From an uncultured Cytophagia bacterium (GTDB taxonomy: Bacteria > Zhuqueibacterota > Zhuqueibacteria > Thermofontimicrobiales > Thermofontimicrobiaceae), in NCBI GenBank assembly GCA_964605145.1, contig CAZSBG010000006.1, positions 28,788 to 92,787 of the forward strand: 64,000 bases of DNA, in the 5' to 3' direction. Below, piece by piece: positions 1,461 through 52,450 of this stretch. The notes under the pieces were generated by a model. The model was given only the letters and a program-made list of their open reading frames with translations, had not been told where the DNA came from and ran no database searches. Each line of letters starts with the position of its first letter. Position 1 is the stretch's first letter. The translations under genes were made by a program, and so were the position numbers.

Positions 1461-1494
1461 AGATACCGATTACCTTTCAGGCTAAATTTATTCT

Positions 1495-1664
1495 TTAACC
1501 TGAATTATTCACAAATTTCAATCAAAAGATGTTTAAATTAATGTTATTAATCTAATTAATCAGATATATGAAATTTAACAAAGTTAGATATACTGAATTC
1601 GGAATGAAGCACCATTCAGGCTACCTGGATTCCTTAATGCATTACAATGAATAATCTAGGTTAA
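1495..1664 (+). mobile_element. MITE-like element copy A: 162 bp (1499-1660) with ~13-bp imperfect terminal inverted repeats (CCTGAATTATTCA ... TGAATAATCTAGG), flanked by 4-bp direct repeats TTAA
   Basis: About 80% identical over its full length to the reverse complement of 23709-23870. Both copies are exactly 162 bp between the inverted-repeat ends, and both are flanked by a 4-bp direct repeat matching YTAR (TTAA here, CTAA/TTAG at copy B). There is no coding capacity. Confidence 0.7.
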
Positions 1665-2020
1665 AGAGATTGAATTTTTTAAGTACTGAATTGAAATTAT
1701 TAAAGTTCATATTATAACCAATTATTTTGAAAAATGCAAATGTTTTTCATCCTGAAAATCATTTTTTTGACCATTTTTTAGCCAATTCAACCGAAGCGAA
1801 TCTAATTGATAATCAAATAGTTACTTTGTTTTCAACACTTCTCTTGCGCGGTCTGAAAGTGCTCCGTCTTAATTCGTTTGAAGTTTATTGGTTTATACCC
1901 TTCCTTAGCTTAATGTTATATAAAATCCTTTTATTGACTTGATTAATACTTCAATTTTGTGTATATTTTATTCTTTTGAAAAGTCCTCTCTTCTTGTGAG
2001 ATAAATTTTTAGGAGTAAAT

Positions 2021-3436
2021 ATGAAATTAATATCAAAGTACTTCGTCGTCGCTATTCTTTTTTCATTTTTATCTGTCGCAAACCTCTTTGCACTTTCGCC
2101 GGGTGACTCCGATAAAACTCAAATCGAAACCTACAAAACCATTGCCAAAGCAATTGTCGATACCGCCATGATAGACGGCCATGCATATTCCATGCTGACT
2201 GAATTGTGCACGGATATTGGGCCGCGATTGAGCGGCTCGCCACAGGCTGCGGCCGCCGTGGAATGGGCCCGGCAGGTTATGTTAGATTATGGATTTGAAA
2301 ACGTTCATCTCCAGCCTGTGCTGGTTCCCCGCTGGATTCGCGGGGATGTTGAAGAAGCTTCCATAGTGAACTCACCCACAGTGGGTACGGTACCGCTTGC
2401 AATTAGCGCACTTGGCAGCAGTGTGGGCACACCTCAAATGGGAATTGTTGCTGAAGTGATTGAAGTAAAAAGTCTGGAAGAAGTCAAGAAAATAGGGGAG
2501 AAAGCAAAAGGTAAAATCATATTTTACAATCGTCCCATGGATCCCACCACGATGAGAACATTTTCAGGATATGGGGGAGCGGTTGATCAGCGGACGCGGG
2601 GAGCAGCAGAAGCCGGAAAAGTTGGCGCGGTTGCCGTGTTGGTGCGCTCTGTCACCACGCGATTGGACAAAGTGCCGCACACCGGTGTTATGCACTATGA
2701 AGAGAATGTTCCCAAAATTCCCGCTGTTGCGGTCAGCACTGTGGACGCAAATTTGCTCAGCAATGTTTTGAAAGAAGATGGGGCTGTGCGTGTGAGAATT
2801 GCTCTCGACTGCCAGCAGAAACCGGATATAATTTCGTACAATGTCATAGGCGAAATTAAGGGATCTGAAAAACCGGAAGAGGTTATCGCTCTGGGTGGGC
2901 ATCTCGATAGCTGGGATGTTGGGCATGGCGCACATGATGATGGTGCCGGATGCGTCCAGGCAATTGAGGCGCTCAGGCTCATCAAAGCCTTAAATTTAAA
3001 ACCGAAGCGCACGCTCCGGGCCGTGATGTTCATGTGCGAAGAATTTGGACTCCGCGGAGGCCCGGCTTACGCCGACAGCGTTGAAAACAGCGGACCCAAA
3101 CACATCGCTGCCATCGAATCGGACCGTGGTGGATTAACTCCCCGGGGTTTCACCATTGGCGCGGACTCGACAGCATTTGAGAAAATTAAAACTTGGTCGC
3201 CTCTGTTCGAATATATCGGCGCGGACTGGTTCACCAGGGGGGGGGGCGGACCGGATATTTCTCCACTGCGGAAACTGGGGGTCGCGACGATTGGGCTTAT
3301 GGTGGATTATCATCGCTACTTCGACTACCATCATTCTGCCAATGATGTGTTAGAAGCTGTCAACGATCGTGAATTGGAACTGGGAGCCGCGGCTATGGCC
3401 ATACTGGCATATCTTCTGGCCATGGAAGGAGTTTGA
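2021..3436 (+). CDS. Secreted M28-family zinc aminopeptidase with PA domain
   Basis: N-terminal signal peptide; HLDSWDVGHGAHDDGAGC and ESDRGG metal-binding motifs typical of M28 peptidases. 471 aa. Confidence 0.85.
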   Translation: MKLISKYFVVAILFSFLSVANLFALSPGDSDKTQIETYKTIAKAIVDTAMIDGHAYSMLTELCTDIGPRLSGSPQAAAAVEWARQVMLDYGFENVHLQPVLVPRWIRGDVEEASIVNSPTVGTVPLAISALGSSVGTPQMGIVAEVIEVKSLEEVKKIGEKAKGKIIFYNRPMDPTTMRTFSGYGGAVDQRTRGAAEAGKVGAVAVLVRSVTTRLDKVPHTGVMHYEENVPKIPAVAVSTVDANLLSNVLKEDGAVRVRIALDCQQKPDIISYNVIGEIKGSEKPEEVIALGGHLDSWDVGHGAHDDGAGCVQAIEALRLIKALNLKPKRTLRAVMFMCEEFGLRGGPAYADSVENSGPKHIAAIESDRGGLTPRGFTIGADSTAFEKIKTWSPLFEYIGADWFTRGGGGPDISPLRKLGVATIGLMVDYHRYFDYHHSANDVLEAVNDRELELGAAAMAILAYLLAMEGV

Positions 3437-15565: not shown

Positions 15566-18500
15566 CTATTTTATCACTGCAATTTTTATGAGTGCTGATT
15601 TTCCATTACCAGTGGATATTCTGGCAACGTAGACGCCGTTTAATACCTTATATCCCTGACCATTTCTGCCATCCCAAATCACATCCGAATCGTGCAAACC
15701 TTTTCGACCCTGAGGCTCGAGTTCAGAATAGGTGCGTGACCAAACCAGCTCGCCGATCAACGTATATATTTGTATTTTCACTTCAGTGTCTTCATCCAGG
15801 TAATAGACGAAATTGGTCACCGGCCTCCCGATTTCTCCGAAAGGATTGGGATAATTGCTGAACGCCTTGTCAAAATCCGCTTCAATTATTACCGATGGCT
15901 CAGATTCAAAATTAAGCGCTTCCAATGTTTGCCCATTGACATTCTTTAATTTCGGCGTTTGCCCGGATTCCTCATCATAAAGATAAAGAGAATTGACCGA
16001 ATCAATCGCTATTTGAAAATCACTAATTTCGGCTGTGGTTGCAATATCCACTTTGAACTGAACCTGGTTTTCAATTTCAGGTTTGAGCGTATCTATTTGT
16101 GAAAATAGAATTTCAATTGGATTTGACGTTGGAATTGCTGTTATCTGTCCAAAAACTTCATTGTTTTGCTGATTATTCACAACACAGACGCGTGAAATAA
16201 CCTGGGCCGGATTTGTAACAGGCACGCCAAATCGATCCTTCAATTTAATTTTAACGCCTGTAAACAGTATATTGTTCGAAAACGCATCGCCGGATGCCAG
16301 CAATTCCAGTCCCATCATGGACACGCCGGTATCCCCCCGGGCAATCGTGTTTTTTGTTGTTGTGGGCAACATACTCACAGTGACGCTTTTTTCTTCAGCA
16401 GAAATTGGAATCGAAACATTTTTCAGCAAGATTGCTTCTGCTGCAACAGGTAGATTTGAGTTTTCATCTTCCGGCCAACTCACGAGGTCAATCGCGATAT
16501 TGCTTGGATCTCTCTCTGATGTCGGTGCGGTGATTGTCCAGAACAGTGAATCATTATACGCAGCCGTCTGGGTTAAATCCTGCGCGATGGAATATCCCTG
16601 GCCTTCCGGCAAAGTTAACGTTGCATTGAAATTTCCCAAAATGTTTGCATCGCCGGTTTTTGAAAGATAAGCGCTCACTACAAAGTTTTGATTCGTTGAA
16701 ACGATACCATCCAGAGCGCTTGCCGGAGATAATATTTTACCTTTCAATTGAATTTCTGCCCGGCGAACCACGTCCACTTCCAGCGAATCCGATGTTCTGG
16801 TGAATGATATTCGACTGTTGGCATCCTGCGCTGTTAATTTCATCCAGATGTGCTGATCGTCGATTGTGCCTCCCGGCGTGGTGATTGTCCAATTCACTGT
16901 TCCCTGGTCGCCAACTCCCACCGGTAATTTTGGATAGGATTCCGGCGTTGTAAATCCTCCTTCCAATTGCAGTTGCACGGAAGGCGCGCCGGTACAGTTA
17001 AACCAGCTCACATCAGCTTCAATTTGAAAGGATTGATGAGTTGACAGAATTTTATCAATCGCCCCGACCGGTGATACAATCCGGAGATTCTCGATCCAGG
17101 CATTTGCCGATTGTTGCGTCTGAACATAGTAATATTTTGATCGGGTCGGCACCATTGCTTTTTCATTTGTATTCACATCTTTGGGTATCGTATTGATGGT
17201 GACAACAATTGGTGCTTTCAGGGTTTCGACTTCAGGAGCCAGCAATCGCCAGGTTACAGGAATATCCGGCTGGAACGGTTTCACTGTATCGTCCTCCGTG
17301 GTGACGCCGGTTGCTCCAAAATCGATGCTCAAATACGCCGCGCCTTCAAGAGGTGCATCCCCAGAATTAATGACAATCGCACTCAAATCGAATTCCTGTC
17401 CCATGGAAAGTGTGCTGTCGGTGGAAGGCCAGGAAATCCATGCCCGATCGATCAACAACGTCGCCCGATTTTCAACTACGACAGAAATACTGTCAGATGC
17501 CGTGACCTCATCGCCTCCAACGGTTCCTGTGACCAGAACTTTTATCCACTTCTCATTGGAATGTGCGTTTTCAGGAGCGATAAGTTCCCAACCGGCCACG
17601 TCTGCGACGTTCGCTTTGATTGAATCTGTGCCAGGCGCAAATCTGTATCCTGCCGGGAGGTTCAATCTGGCGTTTGCGCTGGTGATGTTTTCCGACTTCA
17701 TAATATCTACCTGAACCCAAAAATTCTGAAGTGTGGATAAAGTATCATCCAGCGCCCCTTCAGGCGAACTTATTTCGAATGATTCCACGGCAAGCTCCAG
17801 AGGCACCGTTCTCACCACAAGTGAATCAAACGGGTCCGTATTTTCTATCAAAGCAAATGAGCCGGTATTTTCATCCAAAGGCGGTTTTGAAATCTTCGCG
17901 ACAATCGTATCGTTACTGGACGCATATGAAGGCGGCACGACCTGCCATTCCACTGTTTCATTAATTTCAAACGATGTGGTATCGGATGATTTTTGTTGTT
18001 GGTCGACCACGACAAAATAATTCTGCGGCATGAATAAGGCCAGTTCGCCGCTGGCGTCCACATCTGCTGTTCCGAGATTTTCAATTTGAACCTGAAATGG
18101 CGCGACCTGGCCAATCGAGTAAATCGAATGTTCCTTATTGATGGAAATTTTCAACAGGGCCGGATCGTGCACACGAACCAACGCTGTGGAGTCAGATGCT
18201 CCACCGATTGTAGCCGGAAGGCCGCTGCCGTGTGAAATAGCTGATTCAATTCGCACTGTAAATTTCACCTGTTCAGTGGCCACGGACTGTGCCGCAACAT
18301 TGAAAGTAGCAATGGCCTCTCCTGAAGGTAAAATATTATCGATATTCACAGAGGGTATGATGTACCCAGGCGCTGTTAAACTCACCAGCACATTATCAAC
18401 TTGTTCCCCCCCGGTATTACGGATTTTTGATCTCACGGAAAAAGCCTGGTTTGTGTTCACCTGGCCGATATCGTACTGGTTAATATTTCGACACACCGGT

Positions 18501-21500
18501 TCCGTAAAATCGATGAAAACATCTGCAGACGGACGAACATAAACCGCGCCTGAGTCTGCCACCTGAAAAGTTGTATTTGTATTTAAATAGGTTCCACTCA
18601 AATTTAGTTTTATTTTTGCCATTCCGCCCAAAACACCGGTACTTGTCACGCGGTAAATCAGCGTATCGGCTCCATTCCAGGACAGCGTTAAATTTGGATT
18701 ATTTTCAAATTCGAGTGGCGCCACGATGGTGTAATCATCCTGCTCATTCCCGGTAATTATGATGGATACATCCTCTCTGTTTGGCGGATCCAATTTTATG
18801 AATCCCGCTCCGCTATCTTCAACAGCCACGATAATTTGCCATTCGAAAGGACTCAGCGCTCTGACCGTATCCTGCGATGGCGAAATGGAAACAATTTTGA
18901 ACTTGCCTGGTCGCTGTACAGTGACTGTATCCGTCGAATCGACTGAGGGGCTGATAAAAATTTTATCAGGCTCCGTCGGTGTATTTTCTGCAAATGCGGT
19001 ATCAATTGAGGCGGAGAATACTTCATCCCAAATCCAGTCCGATGACGCCTGTACATTGAACTTTAGCGTATCCGTGCTCGCGCCTTGCACAATTTCAAGG
19101 GAATCCACCGGATTCAAAATAGTTGATGTACTATCACTAATTAACGACATTTTGATATTTTGGGCCGCGTCTTCTCCCTGGTTCTGGACAAGAACGGCTA
19201 TCTGGAAAACCTGATTATTATCCACATACGGCGCATTGGGCGCAATATTCACAGTTTTCAGAATTCGAATATCGGCCGGCATTTCTACCTTAATTGTTGT
19301 GCTATCTTCAGCGGTTTTTTCTTCCTGACTGTTTATCTCCTCGGCAAAAACCGATACATGAATCGTTCGACTGCCTGCAACAGAACCGGTTGTGTCCACT
19401 GAAAAAATCAGGCTGTCCGTAGCGCCGGAAGGCAGCTTGAAAAAGCCGAGTGTTTCAAAACTTATTGGGAAACTGACCACATAATTTGTGTCATCCCCAA
19501 AACTCACAAAGTCATTCAGGTGTGTCGAATCGATTGCAATATCTCCGCCACCGTTATTAGTTAGCGAAATAATAGTCTGCCAGGGCATTGATTGATTTAC
19601 TGTTACTTCTGGTTGGGATGTTCGAATATAATCTATAACAAGCTCACCCGGCGCCTGCACCGTTACCCCGGTCACTTTGCTTTTGATGATTTGACCGCTG
19701 ATCATATCATTCAAATAAACTGTTCCTCCAATGGTAACTGAACCGATTGTTGTGCCGGTTTCATCAACCGTTACTATCAGCGTATCGGTCAATCCGGCAT
19801 CGAGCAAACTATCACCACTTGTCTTGAATGTGTCAGGATATAACATCTGGTACTCGCTCGAAATATCTGAACCGCCATAGGTAAAATTTACCCGAGCGCT
19901 ATCCAGCCGCAACGGCGCTCCCCCATTATTGCGAATTACCATGTTCAGAAACCAGTTCTCAGCCTGACCGCTGGTGACCGTTCTCTGACTGGGATAAAAA
20001 TCGACTATTTCCAAATCAGATGCTTGTTTGACATACCATTGATCGGTTGTGTCTGCGTTCAAATCCGAATAGGGTAGTTCTGAGTTTTCATCGCTTGCAT
20101 AGACTTTTCCATCGATTGTTATGCTGTCGAGTGTGGCATTTGTGCCTACCGTTACGGTAAAGAACAGACTATCCAGGCTGTGCCCTGCGATTGAGGTTGG
20201 ATTCGTCGGATAAGGCACGAGCGCATATTCGTCACTCACATCTAAAATTGGTGGCGTTAAATTTGAATAAGAGAATCTCACTGAATCCACAATCGCCGTT
20301 GCATCCCCATTATTCTGAATCCTTGCGGAGATAATTGTATTTGTCCCCTGGGTAACGGTATCTGCATCAGCTTTCACTCTCAAAAATTGTAGTGAAGGAG
20401 GCGTTTGAACCAGCCATTTATCCGTTTCATTGGCTGCCACATCGCTTACAGAACTGCCATTTACCCTGCAATTAATGAAACCATCGATCTGGATTGAATC
20501 TGTCAATGCGTTTGACTTCACATTCACTAAAAAACTTAGGGTCTTATTTCCATTTCCTGGTAACACTGAAATCGTATCATTACGACTCACAATATAATCG
20601 CCTGAACGATTTGAATAACCGGGTGCAGGGCCGGTAAATTCTAATCCAGCGCCATCAGAAATTATCGTGGCATTTGAAGCGCCATGATTTTTCACGGCCA
20701 TCAGAACCGTTATATTTTGTTGATTGCGGCTCACTTTATCAAAATCTGAACTAACAGACAGAATCTCCAACCCGGAAATAATTATGCTGGTATCCCCAAC
20801 TGCACTTCCCCTGACAACACTATTCGCCTGAACGAGAGCCGTTCCACCTGTTACACCTGCATTGACAACGAATGAAATTTGGCCTGCTGTGTCTGATACA
20901 ACCTGTGTGCCTCCGATACCCGGATTTTCATCAGGTGTTGTAATGGTACCCAATGTTGTTGACACGGTGAAATATTCGCCGCTGGAAATTGGATTGTTAT
21001 CGCTGTCACGAATTGTATCCGACGTAACCACAGAAAACGAATCAGGATCGGCCGGTATTATTTCAGGAACAGGATGAAGTACAATTTCGCCTATCGGTAC
21101 GCCGGGATTTACAGTAATGAGTCCAGTCGTATCATTTTCTGCTGTAGCATGCACGGCCAGAATTTTTCCGTGCGCCGGCGCTGTTGATGGCGAGAAATCA
21201 AGCGTTGAACCGGTCCACAATACAGCCGGCGCTAATGTACTGTCACTGGACCAATCTACAACCGCCGGCCCGAGATAAACATTTCCTTCGTCATAAGCAG
21301 CCGCATACAGTGTCAATGTTTCATCGGCTGAAATGGTACGCGTCGTCACCACATTGCCGGCGCCATTATCTGCATCGCGAATGAGCACGTGGTGAATGGC
21401 TCCCACAGTAAATGTACCTGTCGAATCGGCTCCCACACTCACACTGTCAGCATAAATTCGTCCACTCGTATAGGGCGTAGCCGGACTGAACATTGTGCTC

Positions 21501-23656
21501 GTTCCCTGCAATGGAGTTGGCGTATCCAGATCTCCGGTGGTTCCCCAGTCTGCAACCACTTCTCGAATGTAATTATCATACTGGTCGTATCCTGCAGCGT
21601 AAAGGGATATTTGATCATCCAGATTCAACATATAATCACCAACCTCGGAGCCCAAACCACCCGGATTATCCCGAATGACAATGTGATTCAATCCATCTGG
21701 TTTCACATTGAAATTATTCGAAACACCACTCTCGCCGGAGCCGGCTGCAGTGATTTTATTATCCGTATATTTTTTTGTGATTGTTAAATTTCCTGACCAG
21801 GTGCCTGCACTGAAATTTCCTGTGGAACCGGGGCTCAAAGAACCGGACTCATCCGTCAAACTGACCGCATTTGTAAATCCGGTCACTATATTTTCGTATG
21901 CATCGTTTGCTTCAATAGTCACCGAGAAAGGTGTTCCAGCAGTCTGCGGGCTGGAAATATCTGAAATTGAAAAATGATCCAGTGATGCCGGGTTCACATT
22001 AAAGCTGTTTGACGTTCCGTTTTTATCGCTGCCATTGACAATGATTTTATTACTGGAACCAGTTTTCGTGACAATCACATTACCATTCCAGCTCCCTCCA
22101 CTGAAACTGCCTGAAACCTGGGGAGTGAGTGTGCCTGTTAAATCACTCATCGCCACAGGACCGGCGTACGTTGGTATTGTATTCCCTTCTCTATCCTCTG
22201 CCGTTACAGTTATCGAAAAAGAATTACCGGCTGTTTGTGGTGTTGAAATAGCGTCAATAGTAAAATGATCTAACGCTCCCACTTGTACATCAAAAGCATT
22301 TGATGTCCCGGTTTCGCCTCCGCCGGATCGCTGAACGCTGATCTGATCATTGGTAAAATCGGCTGTAATCTTCACCTGACCGTTCCATTCTCCGCCGCTG
22401 AAATTGTCACTCTGATTGGGCGAGACTGTCCCGCTATTATCCGAAATATCTACTTTTCCGGTAAAACTTGTTACGGTGTTATCATAATTGTCCTGGGCAG
22501 TAACTGAAATGGAAAAATATTCGCCCGCAGTTTTGGGAGAAGAAATCGGCCCGATGTAAAATTTTGCCAAACTTCCGGGATTCACATTGAATAAATTCGA
22601 TGTGCCAACTTTGGAACTCCCGGATGCTGTAATGTAATTATCGCTCTGGCTTTCCGTGATTGTTACGCTTTGCGTTAATGAACCTGAGCTAAAAATATTT
22701 GATGTTTCGTTGAGCGAACCGGTAAGATCGGTCAACAATACAGTGCCAGTAAAACTTTCCACAAGATTCTCATACTGATCCCTCGCAGTAACTGTAATGC
22801 TGAATGACGTCCCGGCCGTTTTTGGACTGGTGATTGTGTTAAATGTAAAATGATCCAGGCCGGCAGGCAAAACATCAAATTCAGATGACATGCCGGATAT
22901 ATCATTATACGTGGCTGTAATTTTATTATTCGACCTGCTTTTAGTAAACGTCACCGTACTATTCCAGACACCTGCTGTGATGCTGCCGGTAGATGTTGGG
23001 CTAATAGTATCGGTTAAATCTGTCAGCGCAACAGAAGATGTATGCGACGTGACCGTATTGTCGTATGCATCCTGTGCGGTAATTGTGACAGAAAAATTTG
23101 AACCAGCCGTTGCATCGCCACTTGTACTGACATCAAAATGATCCAGCGCTCCGGCAGCAATTGAAAAATTTGGTGTATTCCCGTCATCGATATGGGTGTA
23201 TCCCTGGGTCATGGTAATAATTTTTACGCTATAATTATCCGCATCCGGGTTATTCCCCACAGTTCCGATACTGATTTCCACCTCGGTTGATGCCGGAACT
23301 TTTGTTCCGGTGCCATCACGTTCGATCATGACCGAGTCACCATTAACATATTGTATGGAAACACCGCCATTGATACTGCCATCCTCCGAATCGGCAATTT
23401 GAACGCCCGTGAGATCGAATCCCGACGGAAAAATTAATTTAATTTTGCCATCCACCGGGATGCCGTCATCAGCATTATTCCCTGTCGCTGAAGTTGTGAA
23501 AGTAAAAGTATAAATCGCGGACTCCCCGGCAACATTATCACTCAAACTTGTACTCATATTTGCTAGATCACCTTGCGCAAATACTATAGTTGCATTCCCT
23601 GAAAAAATGAGAATTATTACTATTACGATCCCTGCTCTCAGATGTCTTATCCTCAT
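15566..23656 (-). CDS. Giant (~2,696-aa) cell-surface protein with tandem Ig-like repeats and a C-terminal type-A T9SS sorting domain
   Basis: Signal peptide MRIRHLRAGIVIVIILIFSGNATIVFA (ATG at 23656; the track start at 23671 is TTG). At least five ~95-aa tandem repeats share the motif LDHF..ISSPQTAG..FS.TVTA.D.Y.N...F.G.V.L. The last ~90 aa (NYPNPFGE...VYVARISTGNGKSALIKIAVIK) match the Por_Secre_tail / TIGR04183-type CTD. Confidence 0.85.
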   Translation of the reverse strand: MRIRHLRAGIVIVIILIFSGNATIVFAQGDLANMSTSLSDNVAGESAIYTFTFTTSATGNNADDGIPVDGKIKLIFPSGFDLTGVQIADSEDGSINGGVSIQYVNGDSVMIERDGTGTKVPASTEVEISIGTVGNNPDADNYSVKIITMTQGYTHIDDGNTPNFSIAAGALDHFDVSTSGDATAGSNFSVTITAQDAYDNTVTSHTSSVALTDLTDTISPTSTGSITAGVWNSTVTFTKSRSNNKITATYNDISGMSSEFDVLPAGLDHFTFNTITSPKTAGTSFSITVTARDQYENLVESFTGTVLLTDLTGSLNETSNIFSSGSLTQSVTITESQSDNYITASGSSKVGTSNLFNVNPGSLAKFYIGPISSPKTAGEYFSISVTAQDNYDNTVTSFTGKVDISDNSGTVSPNQSDNFSGGEWNGQVKITADFTNDQISVQRSGGGETGTSNAFDVQVGALDHFTIDAISTPQTAGNSFSITVTAEDREGNTIPTYAGPVAMSDLTGTLTPQVSGSFSGGSWNGNVIVTKTGSSNKIIVNGSDKNGTSNSFNVNPASLDHFSISDISSPQTAGTPFSVTIEANDAYENIVTGFTNAVSLTDESGSLSPGSTGNFSAGTWSGNLTITKKYTDNKITAAGSGESGVSNNFNVKPDGLNHIVIRDNPGGLGSEVGDYMLNLDDQISLYAAGYDQYDNYIREVVADWGTTGDLDTPTPLQGTSTMFSPATPYTSGRIYADSVSVGADSTGTFTVGAIHHVLIRDADNGAGNVVTTRTISADETLTLYAAAYDEGNVYLGPAVVDWSSDSTLAPAVLWTGSTLDFSPSTAPAHGKILAVHATAENDTTGLITVNPGVPIGEIVLHPVPEIIPADPDSFSVVTSDTIRDSDNNPISSGEYFTVSTTLGTITTPDENPGIGGTQVVSDTAGQISFVVNAGVTGGTALVQANSVVRGSAVGDTSIIISGLEILSVSSDFDKVSRNQQNITVLMAVKNHGASNATIISDGAGLEFTGPAPGYSNRSGDYIVSRNDTISVLPGNGNKTLSFLVNVKSNALTDSIQIDGFINCRVNGSSVSDVAANETDKWLVQTPPSLQFLRVKADADTVTQGTNTIISARIQNNGDATAIVDSVRFSYSNLTPPILDVSDEYALVPYPTNPTSIAGHSLDSLFFTVTVGTNATLDSITIDGKVYASDENSELPYSDLNADTTDQWYVKQASDLEIVDFYPSQRTVTSGQAENWFLNMVIRNNGGAPLRLDSARVNFTYGGSDISSEYQMLYPDTFKTSGDSLLDAGLTDTLIVTVDETGTTIGSVTIGGTVYLNDMISGQIIKSKVTGVTVQAPGELVIDYIRTSQPEVTVNQSMPWQTIISLTNNGGGDIAIDSTHLNDFVSFGDDTNYVVSFPISFETLGFFKLPSGATDSLIFSVDTTGSVAGSRTIHVSVFAEEINSQEEKTAEDSTTIKVEMPADIRILKTVNIAPNAPYVDNNQVFQIAVLVQNQGEDAAQNIKMSLISDSTSTILNPVDSLEIVQGASTDTLKFNVQASSDWIWDEVFSASIDTAFAENTPTEPDKIFISPSVDSTDTVTVQRPGKFKIVSISPSQDTVRALSPFEWQIIVAVEDSGAGFIKLDPPNREDVSIIITGNEQDDYTIVAPLEFENNPNLTLSWNGADTLIYRVTSTGVLGGMAKIKLNLSGTYLNTNTTFQVADSGAVYVRPSADVFIDFTEPVCRNINQYDIGQVNTNQAFSVRSKIRNTGGEQVDNVLVSLTAPGYIIPSVNIDNILPSGEAIATFNVAAQSVATEQVKFTVRIESAISHGSGLPATIGGASDSTALVRVHDPALLKISINKEHSIYSIGQVAPFQVQIENLGTADVDASGELALFMPQNYFVVVDQQQKSSDTTSFEINETVEWQVVPPSYASSNDTIVAKISKPPLDENTGSFALIENTDPFDSLVVRTVPLELAVESFEISSPEGALDDTLSTLQNFWVQVDIMKSENITSANARLNLPAGYRFAPGTDSIKANVADVAGWELIAPENAHSNEKWIKVLVTGTVGGDEVTASDSISVVVENRATLLIDRAWISWPSTDSTLSMGQEFDLSAIVINSGDAPLEGAAYLSIDFGATGVTTEDDTVKPFQPDIPVTWRLLAPEVETLKAPIVVTINTIPKDVNTNEKAMVPTRSKYYYVQTQQSANAWIENLRIVSPVGAIDKILSTHQSFQIEADVSWFNCTGAPSVQLQLEGGFTTPESYPKLPVGVGDQGTVNWTITTPGGTIDDQHIWMKLTAQDANSRISFTRTSDSLEVDVVRRAEIQLKGKILSPASALDGIVSTNQNFVVSAYLSKTGDANILGNFNATLTLPEGQGYSIAQDLTQTAAYNDSLFWTITAPTSERDPSNIAIDLVSWPEDENSNLPVAAEAILLKNVSIPISAEEKSVTVSMLPTTTKNTIARGDTGVSMMGLELLASGDAFSNNILFTGVKIKLKDRFGVPVTNPAQVISRVCVVNNQQNNEVFGQITAIPTSNPIEILFSQIDTLKPEIENQVQFKVDIATTAEISDFQIAIDSVNSLYLYDEESGQTPKLKNVNGQTLEALNFESEPSVIIEADFDKAFSNYPNPFGEIGRPVTNFVYYLDEDTEVKIQIYTLIGELVWSRTYSELEPQGRKGLHDSDVIWDGRNGQGYKVLNGVYVARISTGNGKSALIKIAVIK
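15569..15850 (-). other. Type-A T9SS C-terminal sorting domain of the giant surface protein
   Basis: YPNPF ... IWDGRNGQGYKVLNGVYVARI ... K terminal pattern. Confidence 0.75.
21750..23160 (-). repeat. In-frame tandem coding repeats (~285 nt units, about five copies) encoding Ig-like domains near the 5' end of the giant gene
   Basis: Recurrent nucleotide and protein-level units (...LDHF.ISDISSPQTAG.PFSVT..A.DAYEN.VT.FT..V.LTD.SG.L.P...G.FS.G.W.GN..ITK...NKI...GS...G.SN.FNVNP..L). Confidence 0.7.
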
Positions 23657-23704
23657 TTGATGCTCTTCCAAAGTTTTTGTTCGTCAATTCTTTTTCATCT
23701 GTCT

Positions 23705-23874
23705 CTAACCTGGATTATTCATTGTAATTCATTAAGGAATCCAGATAGCCTAAATGCTGCTTAATTCAGAATTCGTTATATCAAACTCTGTTAAATTTCA
23801 TACACCTCGTTAATCTTTTTAATAACATTTATTTATATATGTTTAGGTTGAAATCTGTGAATAATTCAGGCTAA
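23705..23874 (-). mobile_element. MITE-like element copy B: 162 bp (23709-23870), inverted relative to copy A, flanked by CTAA direct repeats
   Basis: The reverse complement aligns end to end with 1499-1660. Its terminal inverted repeats are CCTGGATTATTCA ... TGAATAATTCAGG, with 4-bp CTAA at 23705-23708 and 23871-23874. Its end nearest the giant surface-protein gene lies about 50 nt upstream of that gene's ATG. Confidence 0.7.
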
Positions 23875-23889
23875 AAATCAGACTGCATG

Positions 23890-24399
23890 TTATTCTTTTT
23901 CGGGCAGAATTCTGTGTATTTTTTCCTGCTTTAAAACTGATCTTTCATCTTCTATTATTTCCACTGTTATTCTATAGTTATCGGCAGGTTTTAAAGGATT
24001 TTTTACAATCGCGAACTTGACATCCACTTTTTCATTCGGTTTTATTTCTCTTCCAAGCCCGGATCTTTTCAGCGTCAATATCTGGTCATTGACCTCAACG
24101 TCAAATCCACCATTCATTGTTGTTGAGCTGGCTATCATCAATTCTGATAAATCAAACTCCGCTGGAAAAGTGACATTCAATTTTGCCGTCGGCGAAATCG
24201 GTTTTTCGATTCTAAATTCAATTTTGTAAATCGATTTTGCACTTGATTCAGGATGTCTGGCAATCACATTGACAGTATCGGCAGGTGCAGCGCTCGCCAC
24301 ACTGGTGAAAAAATAAATTATTGTAATAAAAAATAGTATTGGGATGAATCTGGTCTTCCCTGTCTCAAACCTATGATATGTTTCAGAAAGATACATCAT
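23890..24399 (-). CDS. Small secreted protein (169 aa), paralogous to the N-terminal domain of the giant surface protein
   Basis: Signal peptide, then SIYKIEFRIE...KLNVTFPAEFDLSEL...NGGFDVEVND...RSGLGREI...VKNPLKPADNYRITVEII. This aligns with the giant protein's AIYTFTFTT...KIKLIFPSGFDLTGV...NGGVSIQYVN...RDGTGTKV...GNNPDADNYSVKIIT. There is no T9SS CTD. Confidence 0.7.
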   Translation of the reverse strand: MMYLSETYHRFETGKTRFIPILFFITIIYFFTSVASAAPADTVNVIARHPESSAKSIYKIEFRIEKPISPTAKLNVTFPAEFDLSELMIASSTTMNGGFDVEVNDQILTLKRSGLGREIKPNEKVDVKFAIVKNPLKPADNYRITVEIIEDERSVLKQEKIHRILPEKE

Positions 24400-24716
24400 T
24401 GTATATTCTCCATGTTAGATTGAAAAACATGATTCGCTCTAAAAAACTTGGTTATATAATTATATTGGATTATTTCCAGTGCGTGGGTGATTTTCATCAA
24501 AAAATTAAATAATACTATCCAAAAAAATTTTCTAAGTTCAGAAAAAATATAAAAAACATATTATTTAAATTTCTGAATTGCAAAAATTATACCGATGTTC
24601 ATAAAAGGTACTCATTCAATGAGGAAATATAAGAAGGTGAAAATGCAGACTTATTCCATCATACATTCATGTGATTTGCTTGCCATGAAAAGGAATAAGT
24701 CCTGCAATTTAATAAA

Positions 24717-51902: not shown

Positions 51903-52450
51903 TTTAGACTCCTTTATCGTTCAATTTATTTTATCGAAAATAATATTGTATAATATAAAGAATAAAAATAAAATTATCAATACTTTTTTCTATCCATAAA
52001 AGTTAATCAGTTTTGTGTGATTTCAATTTGGATACAGAACAAAATGTGACGCTTGTAATATAAAATATATATAATAAATATTAAAGAATAGTTATTATAG
52101 TATAGATGTTGATAACTGACTTCTATGAAAAATTTATTTGTTATTTTCAATAAAAATAAAGGAATTAAAGAGAAGGAGTGTTGTGAATAACTTTGGAATG
52201 AATGTTGAGAAATTGTTAATATGGTTACGGGTTATTCACGTGTATTTAAAATTTTTGAAACTGGCTATGTTTTGGCTAAATTATTCACATCGATTGATAT
52301 CGTTCATGTGTTCGTCTGGGGATAAATTGTGAATAATAAAAAATGATATAATAAATTGGTTGTACATGAATTAAACACATTTTTACTGAAATTTGCAAAA
52401 TGGAAATGTTGATAACCAGTATATTTTCATTTTGGAATAAGTTCAAGAAT
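51903..52450. promoter_or_regulatory. Candidate oriC: AT-rich dnaA-dnaN intergenic region with four DnaA boxes
   Basis: TTATTCACA (matching TTATNCACA) at 52281-52289, and its reverse complement TGTGAATAA at 52182-52190 and 52328-52336. TTATTCACG at 52232-52240. Weaker TTATCAACA-type sites nearby. Classical position downstream of dnaA. Confidence 0.6.

Follow-up and report, generated by a model that had tools for sequence, protein, structure and literature searches.

Two 162-bp segments in the window, that is, in the whole 64-kb stretch of DNA analysed here, are with a probability of about 0.88 copies of a non-autonomous DNA transposon (MITE) in a KSB1 bacterium, mobilised in trans most likely by a DDE-type transposase. 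The element possesses inverted-repeat ends, is flanked by 4-bp direct duplications that are restricted to YTAR, and has inserted independently in related lineages. A mobile element explains all of the data, which holds neither for an RNA gene nor for a duplicated regulatory region, and the MITE reading has therefore been kept.

Structure of the two copies

The two copies, which are those counted within the 64-kb window, comprise the following features.

1495-1498: left target-site duplication of copy A, TTAA, also present on the other side
1499-1660, + strand: MITE copy A, 162 bp, 27% GC, no ORF
1499-1519, + strand: left terminus of copy A, CCTGAATTATTCACAAATTTC, the first 13 nt of which are the inverted repeat
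1505-1513, + strand: DnaA-box-like 9-mer TTATTCACA within the left terminus of copy A, a sequence match
1648-1660, + strand: right terminal inverted repeat of copy A, TGAATAATCTAGG, 11/13 complementary to the left end
1661-1664: right target-site duplication of copy A, TTAA
23705-23708: target-site duplication on the right side of copy B, CTAA on the + strand and TTAG on the element strand
23709-23870, - strand: MITE copy B, 162 bp, 28% GC
23709-23721, - strand: right terminal inverted repeat of copy B, TGAATAATCCAGG (element strand), 12/13 complementary to the left end
23850-23870, - strand: left terminus of copy B, CCTGAATTATTCACAGATTTC, containing TTATTCACA at 23856-23864
23871-23874: target-site duplication on the left side of copy B, TTAG on the element strand

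An earlier note on this DNA, made from the sequence alone, had described two 162-bp segments at these positions, and both were recovered there when they were read directly and aligned end to end. The alignment is gapless and contains 136 identical positions out of 162; the end-to-end match thus stood, while the previous identity estimate of about 80% has to be raised to 84%. The two ends are more similar than the middle, with identities of 92% (first 25 nt) and 90% (last 52 nt) as opposed to 78%. In a repeat search, the two copies emerged as the sole long inverted pair within the 64-kb window (1494-1667 versus 23702-23875, 174 nt, 84%). Comparison of the 20 nt outside each 4-bp flank revealed just 7/20 and 6/20 identical positions between A and B, and the similarity therefore ends at the 4-bp flanks. 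Given the divergence of 16%, neither of the two is a fresh copy of the other.

The imperfect inverted repeats of about 13 bp that had been noticed at the ends were confirmed: in copy A, CCTGAATTATTCA and TGAATAATCTAGG agree at 11 of 13 positions, and in copy B the left end agrees with TGAATAATCCAGG at 12 of 13. Similarly, the 4-bp direct repeats reported before (TTAA at one copy, CTAA/TTAG at the other) were seen as TTAA/TTAA at copy A and, read on the element strand, as TTAG/TTAG at copy B. Since TTAG is non-palindromic, the flank of copy B represents a direct duplication rather than a continuation of the inverted repeat. Neither copy A nor copy B contains an open reading frame of at least 50 aa.

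Genomic setting

The window represents core chromosome, as it holds dnaA, dnaN, recF and gyrB, and those closest homologues of the flanking proteins for which a source is named are labelled candidate division KSB1. Copy A resides in the spacer that separates a 242-aa membrane ORF (732-1460, - strand) from the divergently oriented gene for an M28 peptidase (2021-3436, + strand). Copy B follows the stop codon of a 169-aa gene (23890-24399, - strand) and precedes a 2701-aa gene (15566-23671, - strand), where it adds 166 nt to a short spacer between these co-directional genes; its downstream duplication is separated by 48 nt from the conserved ATG of the 2701-aa gene. Both window copies are oriented toward the downstream gene. 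If transcribed, copy B would contribute a hairpin of 12-16 bp. Scans of the sequence gave no sign of a promoter, a terminator or a structured RNA in the element. Both window insertions look like neutral intergenic passengers rather than regulatory devices.

The 242-aa ORF next to copy A yielded no Pfam or NCBIfam match and has nine homologues among 5.8 billion proteins, the closest at 60%; its GC content of 50% is like that of the neighbouring genes. The 2701-aa ORF next to copy B, for which a single weak CARDB match was obtained, is conserved across KSB1 relatives together with its small upstream partner gene, and its product is probably a cell-surface protein. A composite transposon was also considered at locus A, where the left junction (611-660) of a 1020-bp block was suspected to duplicate the junction next to copy A (1469-1518). 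This idea was dropped because 147 of 500 shuffles reach the score of the alignment between 611-660 and 1469-1518.

Filled and empty sites in relatives

Contigs that encode close relatives of the flanking proteins were compared with the window; percentages in this section that qualify a relative refer to the identity of its protein. Locus B is filled in contig L035, the 168-aa protein of which is 93% identical, with the same TTAG junction, and the L035 copy differs from copy B by a deletion of 9-10 nt and by substitutions. The TTAG junction of copy B was also seen in L034. The locus is empty in the 83% relatives, which are represented by three independent assemblies (L036-38), and in a 76% relative (L039). 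In these four contigs the spacer measures 66-70 nt, compared to 218 nt in the window, and the conserved AAAACTTTGGAAGAGCATCAAATGAGG just upstream of the start codon of the 2701-aa gene is retained.

The reverse situation is found at a third locus. Here, the 83% relative harbours a 160-bp member of the family (L036:328-487 and L037:324-483) with TTAG/TTAG flanks, which lies upstream of the 168-aa gene in an orientation opposite to that gene and is about 35-40% diverged in L036. The corresponding site is empty in the window (around 24440-24470), in L035 and in L039, and the conserved sequence reaches the insertion point. A fourth locus is indicated by contig L018, which derives from the same metagenome as L037 and at the end of which a further member starts.

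Copy A is absent in the 89% relatives (L012-14) and in a 75% relative (L017). Locus A does not provide a clean empty site, as these relatives are without the whole 1020-bp block 641-1660, including the 242-aa ORF; they carry a single TTAA close to where the homologous right flank begins. The part of the block that carries the membrane ORF (block 641-1498, ORF 732-1460, - strand) is thus missing along with copy A in both the 89% and the 75% relatives.

Accordingly, the comparison with related strains that the earlier note had recommended as a check revealed filled and empty sites at locus B and at the third locus, and absence of copy A, there along with the adjoining ORF. The same note had named a lack both of further copies and of an insertion sequence with related ends as the outcome that would speak against a mobile element; as to the copies, further members were found, both at the locus in L036-38 and in L018. 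The filled and empty sites also provide markers that separate close KSB1 lineages.

Additional evidence comes from assembly breaks. In two sequencing runs, five Logan contigs terminate within copy A or B, 10-30 nt from an end of the element, which is how an assembler with k = 31 behaves at a repeat. Such breaks imply that other copies with at least 24-30 identical terminal bases are present in the same samples. For this genome, the result is chiefly one of annotation, as a mobile repeat accounts for the two intergenic segments as well as for their contig breaks in short-read assemblies.

The same ends on other elements

The 21-nt left end CCTGAATTATTCACAAATTTC was searched without any requirement on the flank and was found on at least 9 genome and 12 metagenome contigs. 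YTAR (TTAA, TTAG, CTAA or CTAG) precedes the left end in 17 of the 21 matches listed, at a random expectation of about 1.6%. The elements for which both ends lie on the contig measure 38, 112, 182, 237, 237, 273, 333 and 341 bp. In their interiors, they bear no relation to the 162-bp family. Their right ends consist of TGAATAATnnAGG-like repeats, after which the 4 bases of the left flank recur. Non-palindromic direct repeats (CTAA/CTAA) flank elements in L022, L025 and L036, and the right end of the 330-bp element in L028 is degenerate. According to the records, the hosts of elements with the common 21-nt end belong to Bacteroidota, Chlorobiota, Balneolaceae and KSB1.

Several matches were set aside. 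Those of the 21-mer in L010 (Methanosarcina), L011 (Promethearchaeum) and L029 are without a YTAR flank or a second end and were taken as chance or unrelated, and plasmid matches to the end of the Chlorobiota element proved to be AT-rich noise. Two scans of viral contigs with the end sequence returned no element and one chance match inside a phage gene (L030), and the conserved 3' block TCCTTAATGNATTACAATGAATAATC had no match in the metagenome scan. The smallest of the elements, from a Balneolaceae MAG (L007:1943-1980, 38 bp), contains little beyond the two ends, CCTGAATTATTCACAAATTTCTTGGTGAATAATCCAGG, between TTAA flanks, and may be a minimal substrate or a deletion remnant. In the Chlorobiota MAG CSMAG_1401, three contig ends (L003, L005 and L008) have an element start in common and an identical interior of 112-141 nt; these contigs end at about the k-mer size of the assembler.

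In the plasmid collection, the end led to Persicobacter sp. JZB09 (Bacteroidota). A 215-bp relative, TTAA|CCYGAATTATTCACCGC...GTATGAATTATCCGGG|TTAA, occurs there in at least 177 places on seven replicons. In the regions inspected (L031-L033 and L045-L048; CP012852, CP012861, CP012865 and CP012866), about 15 full or partial copies were seen per 86 kb, and many of the copies consist of the 3' 140 nt only. As the strain is cultured and its replicons are complete, Persicobacter sp. JZB09 would offer a practical system for finding the enzyme. The occurrence of a common 21-bp end together with YTAR on unrelated elements from at least four phylum-level groups points to a widespread transposase that has not yet been linked to these ends.

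Search for an autonomous parent and proposed mechanism

An autonomous partner with matching ends was found neither in the window nor in about 450 kb of loci, 209 kb of which are from Persicobacter, and the same is true for the plasmid, viral, genome and metagenome matches listed, the latter being 12 short contigs. Likewise, no transposase of the DDE_Tnp_1 type (IS5 type) bounded by these ends was found in the same sequences and collections, and no unexplained ORF of the size of a transposase stands out in the ORF list of the window.

Several candidates were followed and rejected. L019 and L024, in which no right end occurs within 700 nt, were considered as full-length elements and contain no transposase ORF. 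A long element of Persicobacter turned out to be a copy split by an unrelated IS1595 element with an 8-bp duplication. This insertion sequence of the IS1595 family (L032:20085-21055) encodes a 297-aa transposase (NF033547, E = 1e-47) and is flanked by the duplication TCTTTGAT. A second long Persicobacter candidate is a copy split by an apparent degraded group II intron; the region in question (L048:8535-10783) carries fragmented reverse-transcriptase ORFs with a YADD motif.

The proposal of the earlier note that the segments are non-autonomous miniature elements is supported by the filled and empty sites, the further loci, the contig breaks and the common termini with YTAR. Based on established knowledge of DDE transposons, a DDE-type transposase supplied in trans most likely binds the ends of the element, which is 160-162 bp long, AT-rich and non-coding with imperfect inverted repeats of about 13 bp, CCTGAATTATTCA...TGAATAATYYAGG. 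A staggered cut of 4 bp at a YTAR target (TTAA, TTAG/CTAA or CTAG) would then be followed by gap repair, which would leave the 4-bp duplication. While the duplications themselves are observed, the type of the enzyme and the stagger of the cut are inferred from the analogy to such systems, and the sequence would be compatible with cut-and-paste as well as with copy-out movement.

Alternative explanations

A first alternative, which we consider unlikely, is that the segments are immobile fossils, i.e. MITE-derived relics that merely drift after the transposase has been lost from the lineage. This would fit with the failure to find a parent element in the searched sequences and collections, and with the divergence among the members, which amounts to 16% between A and B and to about 35-40% for the L036 member, and which has already produced an indel in the L035 copy of B. 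However, copy A is missing from the 89% relative (identity of the peptidase), the lineage of which appears to have copy B, and at least one of the insertions should therefore be fairly recent. The contig breaks at k = 31 likewise argue against immobility, as they imply other copies with at least 24-30 identical terminal bases in the same samples.

A structured small RNA or cis-regulatory RNA that was duplicated upstream of two genes, with the inverted repeats as its closing stem, would be in agreement with the direction of the two window copies toward the downstream gene and with single-sequence folds that close the ends into a stem of 12-16 bp with z-scores of -2.4 to -3.8. In addition, G-U pairs in copy B lengthen the stem on the element strand only. 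Nevertheless, we regard this explanation as highly improbable. No relevant Rfam match was obtained at gathering or relaxed thresholds, and the opposite strand folds about equally well, with the terminal stem carrying the fold. A consensus of three copies keeps the terminal stem only, with frequent disruption of interior pairs and a covariation term of -0.99; of the RNA folding suggested previously as a check, the outcome thus upholds the stem of 12-16 bp but not conserved interior helices. Moreover, the L036 member is opposite to its downstream gene, the same ends enclose entirely different interiors in other elements, and an RNA gene would leave the 4-bp direct duplications unexplained.

A promoter or operator region common to two genes and copied by segmental duplication or gene conversion would account for the intergenic position of both copies upstream of genes, but it can practically be set aside, since it is contradicted by the filled and empty sites, relatives have the same genes without the element, promoter- and terminator-like matches at both loci do not exceed the level of shuffles and none lies inside the copies, and the exact borders, inverted repeats, target duplication and occurrence of the same ends in other phyla do not fit.

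Assignment to a transposon family

In E. coli, IS5 generates a 4-bp duplication at YTAR, and its end reads GGAAGG. The 4-bp YTAR duplication is a feature which the present MITE has in common with the IS5 group, and on this basis the earlier note had attributed the element to the IS5 family. The YTAR duplication was confirmed, whereas the attribution was not: the ends start with CCTG, in contrast to GA or GG in the IS5 family, which renders the label doubtful, and no IS5-type transposase is linked to them. The element starts with CCTGAATT, which differs from the ends of ISPg1/3/4/9 and ISNme1; those of ISPg1 (GAGACCATTGCA), ISPg4 (GAGACTGTTGCA) and ISNme1 (GAGACCTTTGCAAAA) start with GA or GG (PMC4596501). 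A derivative of IS701, which produces a 4-bp duplication and has the end consensus ---YACT-Y--YR (PMC2266710), was rejected, as the length of the duplication fits while CCTGAATTATTCA does not match the end consensus (PMC2266710). The element is therefore filed as a MITE without assignment to a parent family, and the IS5 label is taken as unproven.

Members of the IS1380 family have CC...GG ends and short duplications of 4-5 bp, and piggyBac, which inserts at TTAA and the ends of which begin with CCC, has been linked to IS1380 in the literature. With CCTG...CAGG, the present element shows the same CC...GG form along with a 4-bp duplication. The resemblance is one of few bases, however, and the ends are otherwise unlike: the ends of ISEcp1 as read from pC15-1a, CCTAGATTCTACGT...ACGTGGAATTTAGG, match the end of the element at 8 of 14 positions, and ISEcp1 differs by 5-bp duplications without a YTAR rule. 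When the ISEcp1 transposase was used in a tblastn search for an IS1380-type ORF, nothing was found in 331 kb. A corresponding tblastn search of plasmids contained no Persicobacter among the 60 matches sampled or among the ten commonest genera, which is weak evidence because ISEcp1 itself dominates the list. The resemblance to IS1380 and piggyBac may thus be taken as a loose lead.

In its general properties, the element resembles known bacterial MITEs, such as Correia of Neisseria, BrickBuilt/MITEPgRS of Porphyromonas gingivalis (PMC4596501) and those of a prokaryotic census (PMC11602168), which are similarly small, AT-rich, non-coding and intergenic. Also in common are inverted repeats, a target duplication, the presence of several copies, filled and empty sites, and lineage-specific interiors. 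In contrast, the sequence family and the ends match none of the known MITEs that we found, and the MITEs of P. gingivalis have insertion sequences with matching ends, while no such insertion sequence is known for the present element. A full-text search of the literature with the end sequence returned no paper. The element thus belongs to a well-known kind but forms a new sequence family, and its host phylum has received little study.

A DnaA box at one end and the candidate replication origin

The 9-mer TTATTCACA fits the DnaA-box consensus TTATNCACA, with 12 matches in the window versus 2.9 expected. Three perfect TTATTCACA boxes (at 52182, 52281 and 52328) are located in the dnaN-dnaA spacer (51903-52450). 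The spacer also holds an AT-rich tract at about 51940-52130 and two further boxes, at about 52233 and 52371, that match 8/9 positions. The minimum of the cumulative GC skew lies at about 52 kb. From these sequence features, the spacer at 51903-52450 is likely to be the replication origin.

Within the element, TTATTCACA occurs once per copy and at the left end only (1505-1513 and 23856-23864). The earlier note had placed a perfect DnaA box in each inverted repeat; this is correct for the left end of each copy but not for the right end, which when complemented reads TTATTCATT and is no DnaA box. A related arrangement is known from IS50/Tn5, whose outside end harbours a DnaA box and is DnaA-dependent. 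In both cases, the DnaA-box 9-mer is confined to one end of the transposon, at a distance of about 7 nt from the terminus. The duplications differ in length, as IS50, a member of the IS4 family, produces 9 bp compared to 4 bp in the present element. The putative DnaA box at the left end is the same variant as in the candidate origin and is best regarded as a lead and not as a finding.

It might be speculated further that CCTGAATTATTCAC...GTGAATAATYYAGG together with YTAR marks an undescribed lineage of insertion sequences in the FCB (Fibrobacteres-Chlorobi-Bacteroidetes) group and its neighbours, the left end of which would recruit DnaA via TTATTCACA, a proposal that we rate as rather improbable at present. 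Such a lineage might represent an IS1380/piggyBac-like branch whose target is strictly 4 bp. If true, DnaA recruitment would couple transposition to replication, as has been proposed for the outside end of IS50, and the non-autonomous derivatives, such as those at 177 or more places in Persicobacter, would scatter DnaA-binding sites around the chromosome.

The box matches 8/9 positions in the Persicobacter relatives (TTATTCACC). Its conservation among the matches to the 21-nt end proves nothing in this respect, because the box is part of the search pattern. A perfect DnaA box, TGTGGATAA, is also present in the contig-terminal stretch of L003 from the Chlorobiota MAG.
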